NCBI GenBank assembly: GCA_016180525.1 | Contig: JACPBB010000002.1 | Location: 345,980 to 409,979 of the forward strand | Origin: Parcubacteria group bacterium | Lineage (GTDB): Bacteria; Patescibacteriota; Minisyncoccia; Phycocordibacterales; UBA2135 | DNA length: 64,000 nucleotides | Direction of reading: 5' to 3' | In this document: piece after piece, positions 4,530-57,742 of the stretch | Layout of the letters: each line of letters begins with the position of its first letter | Numbering within the stretch: position 1 is the first letter of the stretch | Translations under genes and position numbers: made by a program | Notes under the pieces: generated by a model | The model's input: only the letters and a program-made list of their open reading frames with translations | What the model was told of the DNA's origin: nothing | The model's database searches: none

Positions 4530-5032
4530 ATTTACTGCGTATCTATAAGCCGAATTCTGTACCAATCTTGTCCACCGCAGGTGGCCCGGCAAGATTGAGT
4601 ACCTCGCCGAAGCTCCTACTGCGGAGCGAAGGCGGGTCGTCCGCCGTCACATGCTGCGCATGCTCTGGCGAGACGCTCAATTTTGTAACCGCCTCTGGTG
4701 GACAAAATTGGCGATGATTATTTATCTGCCTCGTCTGTTGCCAGACGGGTCAAGCGGCACTCCCAATCGCGCATCGCCATGCGGCGATCACGTGGGCACG
4801 GCCTTGCATGTAGATAGGAATTTAGCTCCGACGCTCTTGCGAGGTCGGAGTCCCGACTTGACGTCGGGACCGTTTCAGCCGGACTTAACCGGGTCGTTTC
4901 TGTTCGCATCCCGTGGATTACTCCAGGTGGGTATTACCCACTACCATCCTCCTCCTATAAGAATATAAAAGGACATGTTCGGACTTTCCTCACCCAGCTG
5001 TAGGTTTTGAAACCCGTAGTTGGGCGCAATCA
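4530..5032 (-). ncRNA. rnpB: RNase P RNA (bacterial type), unusually long (about 500 nt)
   Basis: minus strand carries the P4 5' strand GAGGAAAGUCCGAAC (plus-strand coordinates 4980..4991) and, about 440 nt downstream, the P4 3' strand ACAGAAUUCGGCUUA (4546..4560), in the correct order; non-coding, G+C-rich, hairpin-dense; ends are approximate. Confidence 0.55.
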
Positions 5033-5132
5033 TCTGATACGCAATATCTTTATTATACAATAAGAAGACAAAAATACAAGGAAGCGTTCTTTGCTATGTA
5101 TTGAAAATGAGGCTTCCATTACTATATAATGT

Positions 5133-16525: not shown

Positions 16526-16819
16526 ATGGATCCCGAAGAACAAAAAATACTTGAGAGAATACTCAAACTTTCAGAGGAAAACAACAAACTCTTGAAAAAA
16601 ATAAACCGTTCTATACAATGGGGGAGGTTTATCCACGCCCTCTATTGGGTCATCATCATTGGCTCCGCAGTAGGCGCGTATTATTTTCTACAGCCGTTTT
16701 TTGATGCATTTACGGGGGCGCTTGGAACAGTTGGCGCTGGCGTAGAGAATTTACAGAAAGTTGGCGGGTCATTGCCTGATATTGGAGGATTGCTTCAACA
16801 ATTTAATATACAGCGATAA
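16526..16819 (+). CDS. hypothetical single-TM protein
   Basis: ORF-track 16472 start overlaps tRNA-Arg; the internal Met (MDPEEQKIL) avoids the overlap. Confidence 0.4.
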   Translation: MDPEEQKILERILKLSEENNKLLKKINRSIQWGRFIHALYWVIIIGSAVGAYYFLQPFFDAFTGALGTVGAGVENLQKVGGSLPDIGGLLQQFNIQR

Positions 16820-16844
16820 AAATGAAATAAACACGCCTGGGTAG
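16820..16844 (+). repeat. 25-bp direct repeat, copy 1 (includes the first 10 nt of a tRNA-Phe 5' end)
   Basis: aaatgaaataaacacgcctgggtag is identical to 17154..17178. Confidence 0.75.
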
Positions 16845-16889
16845 CCCCGACGCGCGAAGCGGTCGGGGTCCCGACCGAAGCGTCGGGAC
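16845..16889. repeat. G+C-rich nested palindromic repeat element (REP-like family copy)
   Basis: ccccgacgcgcgaagcggtcggggtcccgaccgaagcgtcgggac; shared architecture CCGACGC...GGTCGG(G/A)GTCCCGAC...GCGTCGGG with four other copies. Confidence 0.65.
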
Positions 16890-16906
16890 TCAGCCTAAGA
16901 GTATAC

Positions 16907-17164
16907 ATGGCTTACGTCTATATTTTACAAAACGAGAACGGAAGATATTATGTAGGTAGTACCAGTAATTTAGAAAAACGTATGCAACACCACAGAGGTG
17001 GCTATACTCCGTCAACGAGGAGACTGAAAGCGTTTCAGCTAGTTTTTTCTCAAAAATACGACAGCCTTTTTGAGGCACGAGATATTGAACGAAGATTAAA
17101 AAAGTTAAAGCGTCATGATTATCTTCAAAAAATTATTCGCGATGGTAAAATACAAATGAAATAA
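16907..17164 (+). CDS. GIY-YIG nuclease domain protein (free-standing, homing-endonuclease-like)
   Basis: 85 aa; YVYILQNENGRYYVGSTSNLEKRMQHH matches the GIY-x10-YVG-x-T...R...H GIY-YIG catalytic core. Confidence 0.75.
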   Translation: MAYVYILQNENGRYYVGSTSNLEKRMQHHRGGYTPSTRRLKAFQLVFSQKYDSLFEARDIERRLKKLKRHDYLQKIIRDGKIQMK

Positions 17165-17178
17165 ACACGCCTGGGTAG
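17154..17178 (+). repeat. 25-bp direct repeat, copy 2 (overlaps GIY-YIG stop codon and tRNA-Phe 5' end)
   Basis: identical to 16820..16844. Confidence 0.75.
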
Positions 17179-17241
17179 CTCAGTTGGTAGAGCGCTTCCC
17201 TGAAGAGGAATAGGTCGCCAGTTCGATTCTGGCCCCAGGCA
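17169..17241 (+). tRNA. tRNA-Phe (anticodon GAA)
   Basis: manual fold: acceptor gcctggg/cccaggc, D-arm tagctcagttggtagagc, anticodon loop ctGAAga, T-loop ttcgatt. Confidence 0.9.
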
Positions 17242-17249
17242 TCAAAACA

Positions 17250-17283
17250 AAAATCATCCCGACGGCTATCGGGATGATTTTTT
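17250..17283 (+). terminator. hairpin terminator after tRNA-Phe
   Basis: aatcatcccga-cggcta-tcgggatgatt plus tttttt; near-identical hairpin at 56309..56345. Confidence 0.6.
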
Positions 17284-17429
17284 ACACTATTTTTCCCACA
17301 CATTTCCTTGACAAATAGAATTTAATATGTTAAGCTTTAGAAACCACTGAAATGTCTTTGGTGGTTTCTTCTAGGGGAAATCCTAGACCCAGATGGTCAT
17401 TGAAGCGACCAAGAGAAGGGAGACAAGAA

Positions 17430-17681
17430 ATGTTCGGTACATCTCAGGAAGCCAAGAAGGAAGGCTGGTTCTCGCGTCGTCACCGTACGAGCGAGGCGCA
17501 CGACAACGTGCGAAATATGCGCGAGAACAAACGGATTGCTAAACTCAAAGACGCGCGCAAACGTAACGAGGCGGCGGCTAACCGTTCGCCCTGTGAGCAG
17601 ATTCGTCGGCTCGACGAGCGACTCGGTTCCGGAATCGGCGCCAAGAAGGAGCGCGCCCGTCTAGGGGCCCTTGTCGGCTAA
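17430..17681 (+). CDS. small basic protein encoded in a G+C-rich island (hypothetical, compositionally foreign)
   Basis: 83 aa from ATG with gaagggag RBS; codons heavily G/C-ending unlike neighbours; own terminator at 17713..17745. Confidence 0.4.
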   Translation: MFGTSQEAKKEGWFSRRHRTSEAHDNVRNMRENKRIAKLKDARKRNEAAANRSPCEQIRRLDERLGSGIGAKKERARLGALVG

Positions 17682-17712
17682 ATACCCAAAGGACTGAGCA
17701 GGCCAACTGCTT

Positions 17713-17745
17713 CCCGCTATCTCTTCGGACCTAGCGGGTTTTTAC
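17713..17745 (+). terminator. rho-independent terminator
   Basis: cccgcta-tctcttcggacc-tagcggg plus tttttacttttt. Confidence 0.55.
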
Positions 17746-18323
17746 TTTTTCTCCACGCGCTCGGTGTATTCGCCAGACTCTGTGTTTACGCGTACAATAT
17801 CTCCTTCCTCAATGAATAAAGGTACTTGTATTTCCATTTTATTTTCAAGCGTTACTTGTTTCGTGCCGCCTTGCACGGTGTTTCCGCGCACAGCGGGCGG
17901 CGCAGAGACGACTTTTAAGTCAACCTTAACTGGAATTTTAAATGTGATGAGTTTGTCGCTAAAAAAGAGTGCCTCCACATTTGTGTTTGCTCTTAAAAAT
18001 TTTCCTTGCGGCCCCACGACTTCTTCTGAATACGAAAAACGATTTTTTGGGTTTCCGGGTTCGCAAAACCAATATATCCCCCGATTTTCATAAAGATATG
18101 TAAATGTCTGCACAGGCAAATCTGCTTCCACTGCCGTTTCCGACTGATGGAACGAACGCTCGGTTACTTTTCCGGTCATAAGGTTTTTCAGCTTTGTCTG
18201 ATTAACCGGCTTTCGCTGTTGTTTTCTAAATACATGCGAATCAAGCACCTCATAGGGTTCACCATCAAGTACAATGATTTTTTTGTTTGTGATTTCGTTG
18301 TAATTTAACATACGTTGATGCAC
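17742..18323 (-). CDS. efp: translation elongation factor P
   Basis: 193 aa, three-domain EF-P pattern (KPGKG-like N-domain region, OB folds). Confidence 0.8.
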   Translation of the reverse strand: MHQRMLNYNEITNKKIIVLDGEPYEVLDSHVFRKQQRKPVNQTKLKNLMTGKVTERSFHQSETAVEADLPVQTFTYLYENRGIYWFCEPGNPKNRFSYSEEVVGPQGKFLRANTNVEALFFSDKLITFKIPVKVDLKVVSAPPAVRGNTVQGGTKQVTLENKMEIQVPLFIEEGDIVRVNTESGEYTERVEKK

Positions 18324-19495: not shown

Positions 19496-19521
19496 GTGTT
19501 TGGGGTCCATTTGAATTGAAT

Positions 19522-19579
19522 CCCGACGCTCCGCTTGTGAGCGGGGGTCGGGACCCCGACCGGCTTTGCGCGTCGGGGC
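19522..19579. repeat. G+C-rich nested palindromic repeat element (REP-like family copy, inverted relative to the 16845 copy)
   Basis: its reverse complement gccccgacgcgcaaagccggtcggggtcccgacc...gcgtcggga aligns with 16845..16889. Confidence 0.65.
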
Positions 19580-19695
19580 TACGGGGGCGGCTACGTACAT
19601 AAGAATATATATGAAATAGGCACAAATGTAAAACCCAGCTCCGCCTATTGGTGGGGCTGGGTAAATGAGTCACTAAATTGTTATAATGAAGTGAC

Positions 19696-43661: not shown

Positions 43662-44903
43662 ATGAACAAAGGATTTATCCCCCCACCTTCTCAGAATACC
43701 TCACAGTCTTGCTGTGGAGATGGATGGGTGTTGTACAGATCCTTTCTGAAGGGTCCAATATCTCGCGGGAAGGTGGGGGGATTTATTTCTATTTTTACGC
43801 TTCTTATTATTCTTGGCGTGGTTGGCGTTGGGGTGGTGGGCGCTGTACTTATTGTTAAAACGGGAAATGATAAAAATGACATGGCATCTATTGAAGAGGA
43901 GACAGAAATAGTGGCATCTGAAAATAAAGAGGCAACTTCGTTACCTGTTTCATCAAAGCTTGTCAAAAGCACAGAACAAGGAATTCAAGCGCCAAACACA
44001 ACTCCTTCTGTGGACACCACTCTTCTTAATTTAGAGCGCGAAATTAGTGTTTTGTTTGACGCCAAAGTAGCGATCGGGGAGGAACACTATCTTCTTATTT
44101 TAAAAAATCTTGATAACGCGGAAAAAGAGGGTGGTAATAAAGATACAGTAGCGCGACTGCGAAATATGCTTGAAACAATACATTCGTATGCATCGCTATC
44201 CGCTCCCGAGGAATCGCAAATCACAACAACAGCAGAAGAAGCTCCGATGCCCAAGGGGGTCGGAGTCCCGACCTCGCCAGAAGCGAGCGTCGGGGAAAAA
44301 ACAGAGCCGGTGTCTTGCGCAAACGACACGCGCCCGAAGCTAACCGCAGACATTACCGACTTTTCTAAAATCAGAAAAATTACGGCCCCTGGCAACGCGT
44401 CAGTTGAAGGTCCGAAAGGACACTCGTTTATCTGGACGGGTGGCGCGCGTGTTCCCATCTATGCTCCTGCGAATATTACACTTGAATCTGGCTCATATTC
44501 AAAAGATACCGAGAGTAGTCCGGCGCAGTATCTCCTCTTTTTTGTAGTACAAGAGAATTGCAACTATCGCGTTAAGTTTGACCACATAGATGAGCCGATT
44601 ACATCCATCAGAGAACAATTCTCGGCGACTCCAGCTGTCGCGGACAGTCATACTTCGGAAGTAGTAAACAAAATAAAATTTAACACCGGTGATTTAATTG
44701 GCTACACGTCTGGTACGGTCTCGGCAGGTAATTGGGACTTCGGCATGTATAATTTGAACGAAGAAGGGCCCCTGAAACGAGTTGACAATGTCTTCGGCAT
44801 ACATGGCTACTCGGTGTGCTGGGTGGATTTTTATTCCCCGGATGTAAAAAAATATCAATACAGAAATCTACTTGAAGGCACCACCCTCGTTTGTTTCTTT
44901 TAA
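43662..44903 (+). CDS. hypothetical membrane-anchored secreted protein carrying an in-frame REP-like element
   Basis: 413 aa; N-terminal TM; nt 44244..44294 is a copy of the G+C-rich palindromic repeat and encodes PKGVGVPTSPEASVGEK. Confidence 0.5.
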   Translation: MNKGFIPPPSQNTSQSCCGDGWVLYRSFLKGPISRGKVGGFISIFTLLIILGVVGVGVVGAVLIVKTGNDKNDMASIEEETEIVASENKEATSLPVSSKLVKSTEQGIQAPNTTPSVDTTLLNLEREISVLFDAKVAIGEEHYLLILKNLDNAEKEGGNKDTVARLRNMLETIHSYASLSAPEESQITTTAEEAPMPKGVGVPTSPEASVGEKTEPVSCANDTRPKLTADITDFSKIRKITAPGNASVEGPKGHSFIWTGGARVPIYAPANITLESGSYSKDTESSPAQYLLFFVVQENCNYRVKFDHIDEPITSIREQFSATPAVADSHTSEVVNKIKFNTGDLIGYTSGTVSAGNWDFGMYNLNEEGPLKRVDNVFGIHGYSVCWVDFYSPDVKKYQYRNLLEGTTLVCFF

Positions 44904-45051: not shown

Positions 45052-45086
45052 TGCAATCTTACCAGGCTCTTTTGTCATAAAAACAA

Positions 45087-45135
45087 CCCCCTCACTCTCT
45101 AAGAGTGAGGGGGTGTTTTGCCTGATTTTTTTTCT
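45087..45135. terminator. bidirectional palindromic terminator (copy A)
   Basis: ccccctcactct-cta-agagtgaggggg with A-run before and T-run after; near-identical palindrome at 48724..48750. Confidence 0.65.
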
Positions 45136-45144
45136 TTTCTATTC

Positions 45145-46530
45145 TCATACCCCCGTTCCAAATGGAAGCGAGAGTACATAGAGTCCGAAGACGGTGTAGG
45201 AAACCATGAGGAAGAGCATCGGAAGCTGTCCAAGAATGATTTGCAAACGACTTTCAAATTCCACAAGCGCGATGCGATGTGCGATATATGTCGCGAGAAT
45301 ATGTCCAAGAAGAATTGCCCCAACCATAATGTACCAGACGGTGTCAGCCCCAATAATTCCTATATTAACTTGATACGATTGCGTGCCGAATAAATCCCAA
45401 TCTCTGAAGAGTGGATCGGAGAGCATGGGAATTAAGCGTTGTCCTTCAAAAATGAGGAGGCCAAAGTAGTGCGCGAAGTGATAGACAATGGCAATTGGTA
45501 TTAGGGAATACGTGAATGTGAGGAGGAGTGAAGAAAATGAGGTGGCAGTTTTCGTGACGAGTTTCATAAGAAATATTGCAAACGCATAGAATGCGAAGAA
45601 GACAAGCGGAGAGAAAAGAAGCGTTACATGCGAGACAAGAGAATAGTTGTTGAGGAAGAGGTCGCTTGAGCGGATGAAGTTTACCCATGGCTCTGTTTCT
45701 TTACTTCCGTCAAAAACGGTGGAAGAGAGCATAAAGAGAACGAAGAACAGAATGCTTATATGTGCGGTGCGACTTTTTAAGAGATGCTCGCCGGGTGGAG
45801 TAAATTCAATTTTTTGGGGCGTAATATGAAGCGGAGCGAATTTTCCCACAAGACGGAAGAACACGCTGAAAAAGTCAGAATAGTGAAACCAGTCACGAAT
45901 TCCAAAAAGTGCCGAGCCGTAAATGGAGATAAGAGTGTAGATTACAAGTACTCCGCCAAGCACATAGGGGTTCGCACCAGCGCCGCCTGAGAGCAGCTCA
46001 AGCCAGATAAGGCTGAAAAAAAAGAAAAGCGCGGGGATATATCCGAGCCGCCCCGGATAGGTGTATCGTGGCACATGATTTTTAGGAAGTATCCACGAGG
46101 CAATTGTTTTGAATGGGTTCATATACTCCCAGAGATTTCCAAATAGAGCAGAGAGATAGGTAAACCCCAAGAGGAAGATAATCCAGAAGAGAATCGGAGC
46201 GGGGTTGAGAAAGGCATTCCCGCTTCCTAAGAAAGCGAGTGCAAGCGTAAGTGTGAGGAGTATGATACCGAGAGCTTTCAGAAATGCCGCTACGAAGCGA
46301 AGAGATGGAATGGAAAATGTCTTACTGATATATCGCGAAGTTCCAGAAAGAGCTGGGGTGCTGAATAGTCCGAGAATTGCAAATGATGCCACAAGCGCTG
46401 CTCCCGCTCCGATTGCGTAAATGTGGAAGGGAAGCGGGAGTGTAAATTGGAGTCCAAACGCGTGTGCTTCTGTTATTGTTGGCACAAGTAAAATGAGGAT
46501 TCCGGCAAGAATCTTAAGAATTTGTTTCAT
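45145..46530 (-). CDS. polytopic membrane protein with signal peptide; possible metal-uptake partner of the adjacent YcnI-like protein
   Basis: 461 aa, more than 10 TM helices; operon with cupredoxin-like and YcnI/DUF1775-like genes. Confidence 0.5.
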   Translation of the reverse strand: MKQILKILAGILILLVPTITEAHAFGLQFTLPLPFHIYAIGAGAALVASFAILGLFSTPALSGTSRYISKTFSIPSLRFVAAFLKALGIILLTLTLALAFLGSGNAFLNPAPILFWIIFLLGFTYLSALFGNLWEYMNPFKTIASWILPKNHVPRYTYPGRLGYIPALFFFFSLIWLELLSGGAGANPYVLGGVLVIYTLISIYGSALFGIRDWFHYSDFFSVFFRLVGKFAPLHITPQKIEFTPPGEHLLKSRTAHISILFFVLFMLSSTVFDGSKETEPWVNFIRSSDLFLNNYSLVSHVTLLFSPLVFFAFYAFAIFLMKLVTKTATSFSSLLLTFTYSLIPIAIVYHFAHYFGLLIFEGQRLIPMLSDPLFRDWDLFGTQSYQVNIGIIGADTVWYIMVGAILLGHILATYIAHRIALVEFESRLQIILGQLPMLFLMVSYTVFGLYVLSLPFGTGV

Positions 46531-48022: not shown

Positions 48023-48197
48023 ATTTATTACTATGAGTATACCACACTTGAGTATGTTGGTATGTTGTTTTGCCTGATTTTTTTTCTTTTCTATTCTCAT
48101 ACCCCCGTTCCAAATGGAAGCGAGAGTACATAGAGTCCGCAGGCGATATAACACTAATTTAAAAAGCGATTCCATAATAGGAACCGCTAAAAATGAA

Positions 48198-48644: not shown

Positions 48645-48723
48645 ATATGAACAACCCCTTCCGTTATTTTTCCTTTTTACAGGGTAATTCTTTTAATGTA
48701 TATAGTCAAGTTTTTACTAAAAC

Positions 48724-48760
48724 ACCCCCTCACTCTTTAAGAGTGAGGGGGTGTTTTGAA
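48724..48760. terminator. bidirectional palindromic terminator (copy B), downstream of ftsZ
   Basis: ccccctcactct-tta-agagtgaggggg plus T-run. Confidence 0.65.
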
Positions 48761-56353: not shown

Positions 56354-57742
56354 CTATTCTTTCGCCTCCGTTTTTTCTGGTTCTTTGTGGGAGAGTGTCA
56401 TTCGCTGCTCTGTTGGCTCAAAAAGGGTAATTTTGAATGAATATTTTTTCCCAAGTTCAAGCGCGTCTTTAAGCGCTTTTTCGGTACCGAACTCTGAAAT
56501 ATGATTAAGGCCGGCAACTCCTTCTTCAATAGAGACAAGCGCTCCGTGTTTGTTATGTTTAATCACGACACCATCAACAGTGTCTCCTTTTTTGTATTTT
56601 TTACCCGCGGCCACCCACGGATTTTCTTTAAGTACTTTTATGGAGAGAGAAATTTTGTCTCCTTTTACTTCAATAACCTGCGCCTTCACTTTTTCCCCGA
56701 CTTTAAACAACATGCGCGGATTCTCAACGAGACCCCAATCCATTTCTGAAATATGCACGAGTCCTTCAAGCCCCTCTTCAACTTTCACAAAAGCACCGAA
56801 ATCAACGATACCGGTAATCTCTCCTTCCACAATATCGCCCACTTTGTATTTTTCAACGATTTCACCTTTGCCCTGCTGTTCTGGTCCTTTTTCTGAAAAA
56901 ATGAGCTTCCCTTCTTTTGGCGAGGCAGAGATAATGATGACCTGGAGATTTTTCCCCACAAGTTTTTGAAGTTCAATAAGAATTTTATCCTTATCACCGT
57001 CCAGTACGCGTGGATAATGCTCCGTTTTGAGTTGTGATGCCGGCACAAATCCGGGAATGCCTTGCCACTCTAAAATGAGTCCGCCTTTGTTTGCTTCTTT
57101 AACAGGAAGTTCTAACAATGTTTTGTTACGGATTGCTTCTTCGGCACTGTTCCAGATAAGCGCCTGGCGTGCCTCTTTGAGCGATAGTTCAACATAGCCG
57201 TCTTCGTTTTCCCGCTCCACAACCTTTGCGGTAATATTATCGCCGACATTTATTTTTTTAATAATATCGCTCGCATTTCTAAACTCCCTCCCATAAATGA
57301 TTCCCGTGCCGAACGGGCCAAGGTCAATAAACAATTTTGATTTATCAATTTCTATAACGGGACCGAGAACCAAATCTCCCTCTTCCGGGGGATTTTTAGT
57401 GTTCTCCATAATTTTAACCATTGGATGGCTGGCCATGGGCCGAGCGTTTTGTAAGGGAACATACGCCGCTCTTGATTCAGCGTTCGCAGATTCAAATTTT
57501 TTATCAGATTTTTTTGTGGAGGTGGATACGGGAGGAGAGACAACGGCCTCTTCCGCGACAAGAGATGCCTTTGAAGTTTCTTTAGGTTGCTCTATTTTTT
57601 TTCCGACGCTCGCTTCTGGCGAGATCGGGACCCCGACCCCTTTGGGCGTCGGAGCCTCTTTTACGATAATTTTTTTTGTTTCTTCTTTTCCTTCCTCTTT
57701 TTTAGACTTTTTAAGTTTAAATAATGATTTAATTAACGCCAT
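56354..57742 (-). CDS. rpsA: 30S ribosomal protein S1 (four S1 domains) with N-terminal low-complexity extension carrying an in-frame REP-like element
   Basis: repeated S1 OB-fold units (GxVxGxV...G.F...) across about 350 aa; nt 57603..57651 is a repeat copy encoding PKGVGVPISPEASVGKK. Confidence 0.75.
   Translation of the reverse strand: MALIKSLFKLKKSKKEEGKEETKKIIVKEAPTPKGVGVPISPEASVGKKIEQPKETSKASLVAEEAVVSPPVSTSTKKSDKKFESANAESRAAYVPLQNARPMASHPMVKIMENTKNPPEEGDLVLGPVIEIDKSKLFIDLGPFGTGIIYGREFRNASDIIKKINVGDNITAKVVERENEDGYVELSLKEARQALIWNSAEEAIRNKTLLELPVKEANKGGLILEWQGIPGFVPASQLKTEHYPRVLDGDKDKILIELQKLVGKNLQVIIISASPKEGKLIFSEKGPEQQGKGEIVEKYKVGDIVEGEITGIVDFGAFVKVEEGLEGLVHISEMDWGLVENPRMLFKVGEKVKAQVIEVKGDKISLSIKVLKENPWVAAGKKYKKGDTVDGVVIKHNKHGALVSIEEGVAGLNHISEFGTEKALKDALELGKKYSFKITLFEPTEQRMTLSHKEPEKTEAKE

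Follow-up and report, generated by a model that had tools for sequence, protein, structure and literature searches.

A hairpin-bearing GIY-YIG nuclease cassette that recurs in the D arm of tRNA genes in Patescibacteria

Introduction

Why does the 5' end of tRNA-Phe occur twice in the genome of a Parcubacteria-group bacterium, once as the beginning of an intact tRNA gene and once as an upstream orphan, with a small nuclease gene and a G+C-rich palindrome between the two copies? The locus lies on contig JACPBB010000002.1 of a Parcubacteria-group metagenome-assembled genome (assembly GCA_016180525.1), within a stretch of 64,000 nucleotides (nt; contig positions 345,980 to 409,979) that is called the window here; all coordinates are those of the window. 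A first-pass annotation, made from these letters alone, had proposed that a mobile cassette of the homing-endonuclease type, carrying a GIY-YIG gene of 85 amino acids (aa), inserted at the edge of tRNA-Phe and regenerated the gene boundary. Here we describe the cassette, its relatives and the sites that lack it, and weigh what kind of element it is.

Results

The 25-mer AAATGAAATAAACACGCCTGGGTAG occurs exactly twice in the window, at 16820-16844 and 17154-17178, as first noted; the identity in fact extends over 26 nt, to the C at 16845/17179, and over 30 nt with one mismatch (16816-16845 against 17150-17179), and no match to the repeat arose in 100 dinucleotide-preserving shuffles. All features of the locus lie on the + strand, save the closing hairpin, for which no strand was assigned. 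The left copy (16820..16845) consists of the 15-nt leader AAATGAAATAAACAC, an orphan of tRNA-Phe nt 1-10 (16835-16844) and the C at 16845. It abuts the stop codon of the upstream host gene orf115 (16526..16819), which encodes a small predicted membrane protein with the likely start MDPEEQ, and the leaders at the empty sites of relatives abut this stop codon in the same way. The right copy (17154..17179) holds the regenerated leader and tRNA nt 1-11, and runs into the intact tRNA-Phe(gaa) (17169..17241), on which ARAGORN and Rfam agree and to which it supplies nt 1-10/11, as had been proposed. The unit is closed after the tRNA by a terminator-like hairpin (17249..17282), and an Rfam scan of 16700-17800 found the tRNA only.

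After nt 10 of the orphan stands a G+C-rich double hairpin of 44 nt (16845..16888, the boundary being ambiguous by one C), made up of S1 (16845-16868, CCCCGAC / GTCGGGG) and S2 (16869-16888, TCCCGAC / GTCGGGA). The five letters 3' of it, CTCAG (16889..16893), are tRNA nt 11-15, and divergence from the tRNA begins only after them. Hence the first copy is an orphaned tRNA 5' end, as the first-pass annotation had it, but one that comprises nt 1-15 and is interrupted by the hairpin after nt 10. A ribosome-binding-like motif, AAGAG (16897-16901), lies between CTCAG and the nuclease open reading frame (ORF), a single-domain GIY-YIG gene of 85 aa (16907..17164). Its TAA (17162-17164) does fall inside the right copy, so that the final codons and the stop are encoded by the duplicated leader. 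The tRNA-Phe gene has received an insertion of 334 nt, the nuclease gene with its double hairpin; it is split in the D arm by this insertion and kept whole by the duplication. In Logan assemblies from three sequencing runs the sequence is identical to the window across both junctions: one contig (L001) covers the left junction, and another (L187) begins at 16863, inside the first hairpin, and takes in all that follows, namely the remaining hairpin sequence, the ORF, the right repeat and the tRNA.

The left repeat can also be read as the end of an older nuclease gene, since it translates to IKMK*. We rejected this candidate, as chance is the simpler explanation and the empty sites of relatives have A/T-rich leaders at this place, though in one surveyed locus, L061, 12 codons are duplicated.

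The 85-aa product matches Pfam GIY-YIG (PF01541) over residues 1-70 with E=3.7e-15 and 56.4 bits (cut-off 22.6), which bears out its initial assignment. TIGR01453, the NCBIfam model of group I intron endonucleases, stays below its cut-off (24 bits, where 56 are required) and aligns to no more than residues 1-30, and matches to homing endonucleases in PHROG are limited to the N-terminal motif. An alignment of 37 homologues, 49-72% identical, has Y5, Y15, G17, R25, H29 and E61 invariant; among these we take, by analogy with I-TevI, the tyrosines of GIY and YIG, the arginine, the histidine and the metal-binding glutamate to be catalytic. The C-termini of several aligned homologues resemble translated tRNA 5' ends. 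The ratio of nonsynonymous to synonymous substitution rates is 0.08-0.14 in seven alignable nuclease pairs, and 78 of 80 matches from the genome survey described below run over at least 75 aa with no internal stop, the exceptions being L065 (an internal stop) and L073 (a short match). The ORF is thus under purifying selection, and the gene is probably functional. Among 1.84 billion representative proteins there are 150 clusters of matches with E<=1e-10, a number that rises to 2670 when E<=1e-3 is allowed. A look-up of the exact 85-aa sequence found no record; in at least one assembly, that of L187, the gene caller lengthens the ORF to 99 aa, so that its product differs from the 85-aa sequence.

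Is this a peculiarity of one genome? One genome per species was scanned with the homologue alignment, which returned 80 loci, nearly all from named Patescibacteria. At 72 of these 80 a tRNA gene on the same strand starts within 170 nt 3' of the ORF; most of these starts fall in the interval from 11 nt ahead of the last letter of the stop codon to 16 nt beyond it. In 4 of the 8 loci that have no downstream tRNA the contig ends less than 330 nt from the ORF. The tRNAs are of many species: Thr at 22 loci, Phe at 15, Val at 9, Asn at 7, Ile and Lys at 4 each, Met, Arg and His at 3 each, Pro at 1 and one predicted suppressor. The stop codon of the ORF is the TAG of tRNA T8-A9-G10 in 33 of the 72. 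Of 73 loci, the window included, 45 have an orphan of the first 10 nt of the resident tRNA, with at most one mismatch, less than 200 nt before the ATG; simple arithmetic under uniform base composition would expect about 0.4 loci by chance. The duplicated segment often takes in the leader, 5-36 nt upstream of tRNA +1, and measures 10-51 nt in total; its right edge is fixed and its left edge varies among loci. Six loci (L002, L004, L029, L032, L039 and L067) have a second mini-tRNA orphan with a hairpin between the ORF and the intact tRNA, and in L008 and L017 the cassette is flanked on both sides by tRNA fragments that differ from the resident tRNA, as is expected if the flanks travel with the cassette. 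Copy number is usually one locus per genome. The cassette is a family-wide architecture and not a one-off.

Two further observations come from the same survey. In a Yanofskybacteria locus (L072:3255-3328) the cassette precedes a tRNA with the ARAGORN-predicted anticodon TTA, which could be a suppressor or a misprediction. A second GIY-YIG gene of the same family lies less than 3 kb away in L004 (936-1169), L048, L053, L056 and L076; that of L004 stands directly upstream of tRNA-Gly(ccc).

The order glutaredoxin gene (grx) - tRNA-Arg - orf115 - GIY - tRNA-Phe, in which orf115 and the glutaredoxin gene are syntenic with the cassette, recurs in 13 genome loci, a synteny that, taken by itself, would be compatible with an old gene fixed in place. 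Metagenomes were scanned with orf115 as the key, a search that carries no bias to filled sites, and 80 loci were returned. The orf115/tRNA-Phe site is empty in 37 distinct loci, where only 2-56 nt separate the stop codon from tRNA-Phe and there is neither nuclease gene nor hairpin; it is filled by the GIY-YIG cassette in 3. On a tree of orf115 the filled sites L002, L004, L027 and L147 are scattered, each sister to empty sites, from which it seems that the cassette was gained and lost repeatedly.

The pair L027/L121, with orf115 81% identical, lets a filled and an empty site be compared letter by letter. Empty L121 reads ..CAATGA ATTTGATT GCCTGGGTAGCTCAGTAG.., that is, the stop codon, TTTGATT and the tRNA start GCCTGGGTAGCTCAG. 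Filled L027 reads on its left side ..CAATGA TTTGATT GCCTGGGTAG, hairpin, CTCAG, GTTTATTT and the ATG, and on its right side the ORF up to TAA, CTT and GCCTGGGTAGCTCAGTAG.., the tRNA start again being GCCTGGGTAGCTCAG. The comparison identifies the left copy as the original target and the right copy as the regenerated one. For the genome of the window the corresponding empty junction is predicted to be CAGCGATAAAAATGAAATAAACACGCCTGGGTAGCTCAGTTGG. The empty alleles called for by the first-pass annotation therefore exist in relatives, and L027/L121 has the predicted form.

Other sequences have also settled at this site. In four distinct loci (L108, L127, L135 and L159) the same intergenic site holds an ORF of about 122-124 aa on the minus strand that matches Pfam HNH (22.5 bits), and L108 also has the orphan GTCTGGGTAG at its left edge. 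In three (L123, L132 and L156) about 150-200 nt of G+C-rich sequence that looks structured break up an upstream copy of tRNA-Phe; Rfam has no family for the inserts in L123 and L156. One distinct locus has an orphan and a different palindrome with no ORF: in L085, as in L087, an orphan tRNA-Phe 5' end carries the palindrome CCCTGCCTGCCGGCAGGCAGG at nt 15/16, followed by TTGGTAGA, and L085 is a solo footprint at the orf115/tRNA-Phe site. The notion of tRNA-Phe as an insertion hot spot is thus borne out by the HNH genes, the other inserts and the solo footprints in relatives, and not by the G+C-rich ORF downstream of it on which it had been based.

The palindrome between the copies had been taken for one copy of a repeat. 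It is indeed a double hairpin, but not an incidental one: in 72 of the 80 loci from the genome survey, hairpins of the form CCGAY..RTCGG lie within 130 nt upstream of the ATG (154 hairpins in total), against a background of 0.019 per 130 nt elsewhere in the same loci, and in 21 of the 80 they also lie downstream of the ORF and so on both sides of it. The core is near-invariant (CCGAC in 165 of 179 and GTCGG in 167 of 179), while the two outer pairs covary, 304 of 358 positions being complementary with at least six pair types. In about 46 loci the hairpin block comes after tRNA nt 10 (..TAG/hairpin/CTCAG), and in about 11 it comes after nt 15 (..TAGCTCAG/hairpin/TTGGTAGA); directly 3' of it stands CTCAG or CTCAA in at least 30 loci, and TTGGTAGA in the nt-15 class. 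That class forms its own clade in the protein tree, which indicates that hairpin type and nuclease co-evolve. The hairpin is thus a constituent of the cassette itself and evolves together with it. The loops of cassette hairpins carry CGAAG / GCGAAGC, a motif that forms very stable DNA mini-hairpins.

Four more double-hairpin copies occur inside the 64-kb window; in other genomes that carry the gene, such dispersed copies are rare (0.16 per 10 kb). At 19515..19588 on the - strand, an Arg-like orphan, GCCCCCGTAG, is followed by a double hairpin and TTCAAT, with no ORF. This segment ends 19 nt upstream of tRNA-Arg(ccg), has an AAACAC leader that resembles that of tRNA-Phe, and looks like the solo footprint of a lost cassette. 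Two copies lie in frame in protein genes, at 44242-44295 (+ strand, in ORF 43662-44903) and at 57602-57654 (- strand, in ORF 56354-57742, the product of which we take to be an S1-type RNA-binding protein); they are identical at 55 of 61 nt and both translate to AP(M/T)PKGVGVP(T/I)SPEASVG. A CCGAC/GTCGG double hairpin also lies at 4826-4869, within the RNase P RNA gene (4530-5045, - strand). Insertion of a hairpin into this gene was considered and rejected, as the copy aligns to the native P13/P14 helices in Rfam. Between model positions 335 and 336 the same gene also carries about 125 additional nt.

Discussion

We regard it as probable that the locus holds a selfish nuclease cassette of the homing type, which lands in a conserved and essential sequence, the D arm of tRNA genes. 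Recurrence at many tRNAs, patchiness with empty sites in close relatives, and the purifying selection that acts on the nuclease together make up the signature of such an element. The proposal of a homing-type insertion is upheld by the empty sites and by the L027/L121 comparison, with the correction that the break lies inside the tRNA gene, in the D arm (3' of nt 10 or of nt 15), rather than at its edge. Patchy presence beside intact empty sites in relatives (37 empty against 3 filled) is also a property of classical homing endonucleases. The classical I-TevI/Seg enzymes, however, join a catalytic to a C-terminal DNA-binding domain in about 200-270 aa, whereas the cassette protein is a catalytic domain only; the cassette is therefore homing-like in its distribution without encoding a classical I-TevI/Seg-type homing endonuclease.

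Of known systems, the closest to the cassette are the Ssn nucleases, its best functional analogue, and phage T4 SegB. The Ssn family (CDD cd10448), to which N. meningitidis SsnA belongs, comprises site-specific nucleases of about 94 aa with a single GIY-YIG domain; they bind the hairpin repeats on either side of their genes, and they cleave single-stranded DNA immediately 5' of such a repeat (Chenal et al., 2025; PMC11893778). The protein of the window, at 85 aa and with one domain, falls in with the single-domain GIY-YIG size of about 85-95 aa, its gene too is flanked by G+C-rich hairpin repeats of which more copies are dispersed in the genome, and the hairpin is oriented such that the tRNA/hairpin junction is its 5' base, the side on which Ssn enzymes cut. 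Against a profile of the Patescibacteria proteins, plasmid-encoded Ssn proteins of Azospirillum and Shinella, whose genes are each surrounded by four canonical Ssn repeats according to a regular expression of the published consensus, score 48.7 and 46.6 bits; the UPF0213 (cd10456) protein BH0048 does equally well, at 49.3 bits, and proteins that lack canonical repeats score about 45. The two systems differ in that the Ssn consensus HGTCWYN(0-2)YYVSBRHN(0-5)WNVSBRGN(0-2)RNCYNB matches no hairpin of the window, that the cassette hairpin is double and its dispersed copies few, and that the Ssn paper makes no mention of tRNA (PMC11893778).

In phage T4, the GIY-YIG homing enzyme SegB recognises a site in which a conserved tRNA motif is contained (PMC2330249). 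Like the cassette gene, segB is a free-standing GIY-YIG gene among or next to tRNA genes, patchily present and inherited together with flanking tRNA sequence. SegB is reportedly a multi-domain protein of about 220 aa. It differs from the cassette in that it recognises the T-psi-C arm, is phage-borne, and has neither a hairpin nor a duplicated tRNA 5' end. Proteins of the UPF0213/YhbQ type (PDB 1ZG2 and 1YWL), which share the size and single domain of the cassette protein, are its best matches among solved structures (E=4.6e-12); to our knowledge no hairpin or tRNA context has been described for them, and their function is uncertain.

For the movement of the cassette we infer the following. The nuclease would break an unoccupied tRNA gene near nt 10-15, recognising either the conserved D-arm sequence TAGCTCAG or, in the manner of the Ssn enzymes, a DNA hairpin in single-stranded DNA, which it would bind and just 5' of which it would cut. 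Host repair would then copy the cassette from an occupied copy, homology being provided on the right by the tRNA body and on the left by the orphan 5' end. On entry into a new site, repair synthesis or microhomology joining would give rise to a duplication of variable length, and selection would keep only those events that regenerate a single-copy tRNA.

Several points weigh against this reading. The enzyme lacks the DNA-binding domain of classical homing endonucleases, and its cleavage is a prediction only. Copy number is low, and other tRNA genes of the window with the same D-arm sequence are unoccupied, so that the enzyme must act rarely, with high specificity or under regulation. Hydrolysis by GIY-YIG enzymes involves no strand transfer, which leaves the variable duplication of 10-51 nt unaccounted for. 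The Nomurabacteria show much the same divergence in the nuclease (about 80% identity) as in orf115 (75%), which would also fit long vertical inheritance with occasional precise loss. A search of viral contigs yielded only distant GIY-YIG relatives, at most 36% identical over the domain, and no close relatives of the nuclease that could serve as vectors. Finally, no strain-level empty allele of the genome of the window was found, the Logan contigs from the three runs being filled or ending near the repeat; the contig ends, at 16849, 16863, 17150 and 17169, do not fit the branch points expected from an empty allele, and we conclude nothing from them.

Could the cassette instead have been domesticated? 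It would then be a host module built on an Ssn-like single-stranded-DNA nuclease that, for example, restricts or modulates hairpin-bearing transforming DNA; it would be co-transcribed with the tRNA and mostly vertically inherited, and the duplication would be an old scar kept tRNA-like by gene conversion. Strong purifying selection, low copy number, the similar divergence of nuclease and neighbouring genes, and the grx to tRNA-Phe synteny, kept in 13 divergent genomes, would all suit such a module, as would the precedent of the Ssn enzymes, which have a host function in natural transformation, and the dispersed hairpin copies elsewhere in the window. We nonetheless consider it unlikely: the cassette fills only 3 of some 50 sites between orf115 and tRNA-Phe, scattered among empty sisters, and it is tied to 11 different tRNA species and surrounded by orphan fragments and foreign tRNA halves, and other lineages hold HNH nuclease genes at the same site. 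A domesticated host role is, moreover, compatible with a selfish origin. We give slightly less credence still to a hairpin-directed transposable unit, comparable to IS200/IS605 or REP/RAYT, for which the tRNA D arm would be the preferred docking sequence; its nuclease would act on single-stranded DNA by recognition of the double hairpin of the unit, and would mobilise the hairpin alone or together with the gene. The invariant core and covarying outer pairs (304/358) fit recognition of folded DNA by a protein, hairpins flank the ORF on both sides in 21 of 80 loci, and the four further double hairpins of the window include two in frame in protein genes. The loop motif CGAAG / GCGAAGC can be set beside GCGAAGGC, which the canonical repeats flanking Ssn genes carry, and the authors of the Ssn paper themselves raise the analogy with insertion sequences (PMC11893778). 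REP/RAYT, IS200/IS605 and Rickettsia palindromic elements share with the cassette a single-copy nuclease gene combined with short palindromic repeats. Rickettsia palindromic elements also lie in frame inside protein genes, as the copies at 44242-44295 and 57602-57654 do. Yet none of these systems duplicates part of a tRNA gene, and their enzymes are HUH tyrosine transposases, whereas a GIY-YIG enzyme is hydrolytic and does not become covalently joined to DNA as an intermediate; other carriers have few dispersed double hairpins; a right-end hairpin is absent from the window and from most loci; and tRNA sequence resumes after the hairpin, which places the hairpin inside the tRNA copy and not at the end of an element.

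An ordinary transposon that duplicates its target site would not leave a duplication of variable length with a fixed right and a variable left edge, and there is no transposase. Integrative elements typically have direct repeats of which one overlaps a tRNA gene, and the 25-mer could be read as the attL/attR of an integrase-type genomic islet; this is already contradicted and very improbable, as the insert measures only about 310 bp and has no integrase gene, the repeat is at the 5' and not the 3' end of the tRNA, and its length, 10-51 nt among loci, leaves no fixed core. Contigs from several assemblies end near the repeat or the hairpin, as they might if the repeat were due to chance or to assembly, but an artefact is likewise contradicted by the shuffles, by the agreement of the three-run Logan assemblies with the window across both junctions and by the same architecture in dozens of unrelated metagenome-assembled genomes, and we attach next to no probability to it.

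On the reading that we prefer, a selfish cassette of the homing type, the present data describe a recurrent way for a selfish nuclease gene to inhabit an essential single-copy tRNA gene, by splitting it in the D arm and regenerating its 5' end. Such cassettes are common in the candidate phyla radiation, a group about whose mobile elements little is known. They tie hairpin-guided nucleases of the Ssn type to a concrete genomic target, with the hairpin junction and the tRNA D arm as testable substrates, and the stop codon within the tRNA suggests a possible tie between tRNA processing and expression of the nuclease. Our literature searches turned up no description of a GIY-YIG/tRNA cassette in Patescibacteria. 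More tentatively, and with less than even confidence by a wide measure, we raise the idea that the hairpin and the single-domain GIY-YIG gene constitute an undescribed, Patescibacteria-specific class of mobile element that combines three properties. Its nuclease may, like the Ssn enzymes, recognise its own folded DNA hairpin. It may dock in the tRNA D arm and spread both as full cassettes and as hairpin-only copies, of which we saw examples in frame in protein genes and upstream of tRNA-Arg. Expression of the nuclease may be coupled to tRNA maturation; where the stop codon is tRNA U8-A9-G10, as at about 45% of loci, an RNase P cut of the co-transcript would leave a message with no stop codon.

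Neighbouring sequences of the window call for brief mention. The G+C-rich ORF downstream of the tRNA (17430-17681, + strand, 83 aa) has 59.5% G+C against 42.5% in the window and a G+C fraction of 0.65 at third codon positions, with a promoter-like site before it and a hairpin after it. It has only two homologues among 5.8 billion proteins and no Pfam match, and appears from these searches to be an orphan gene. Further on, 45081-45198 and 48066-48150 / 48719-48758 share a direct repeat of 85 nt (95%) and a hairpin repeat of 40 nt (93%), with copies about 3 kb apart; both are unrelated to the cassette.

The cassettes also present hazards to annotation and assembly, in the form of overextended ORFs, orphan tRNA 5' ends that confuse tRNA counts, and assembly breaks. 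Gene callers often stretch the ORF N-terminally through the hairpin or C-terminally into the tRNA (for example P0015 and the long cluster representatives), and in metagenome-assembled genomes a contig end often lies 70-450 nt away from the cassette, as in many of the 80 survey loci.

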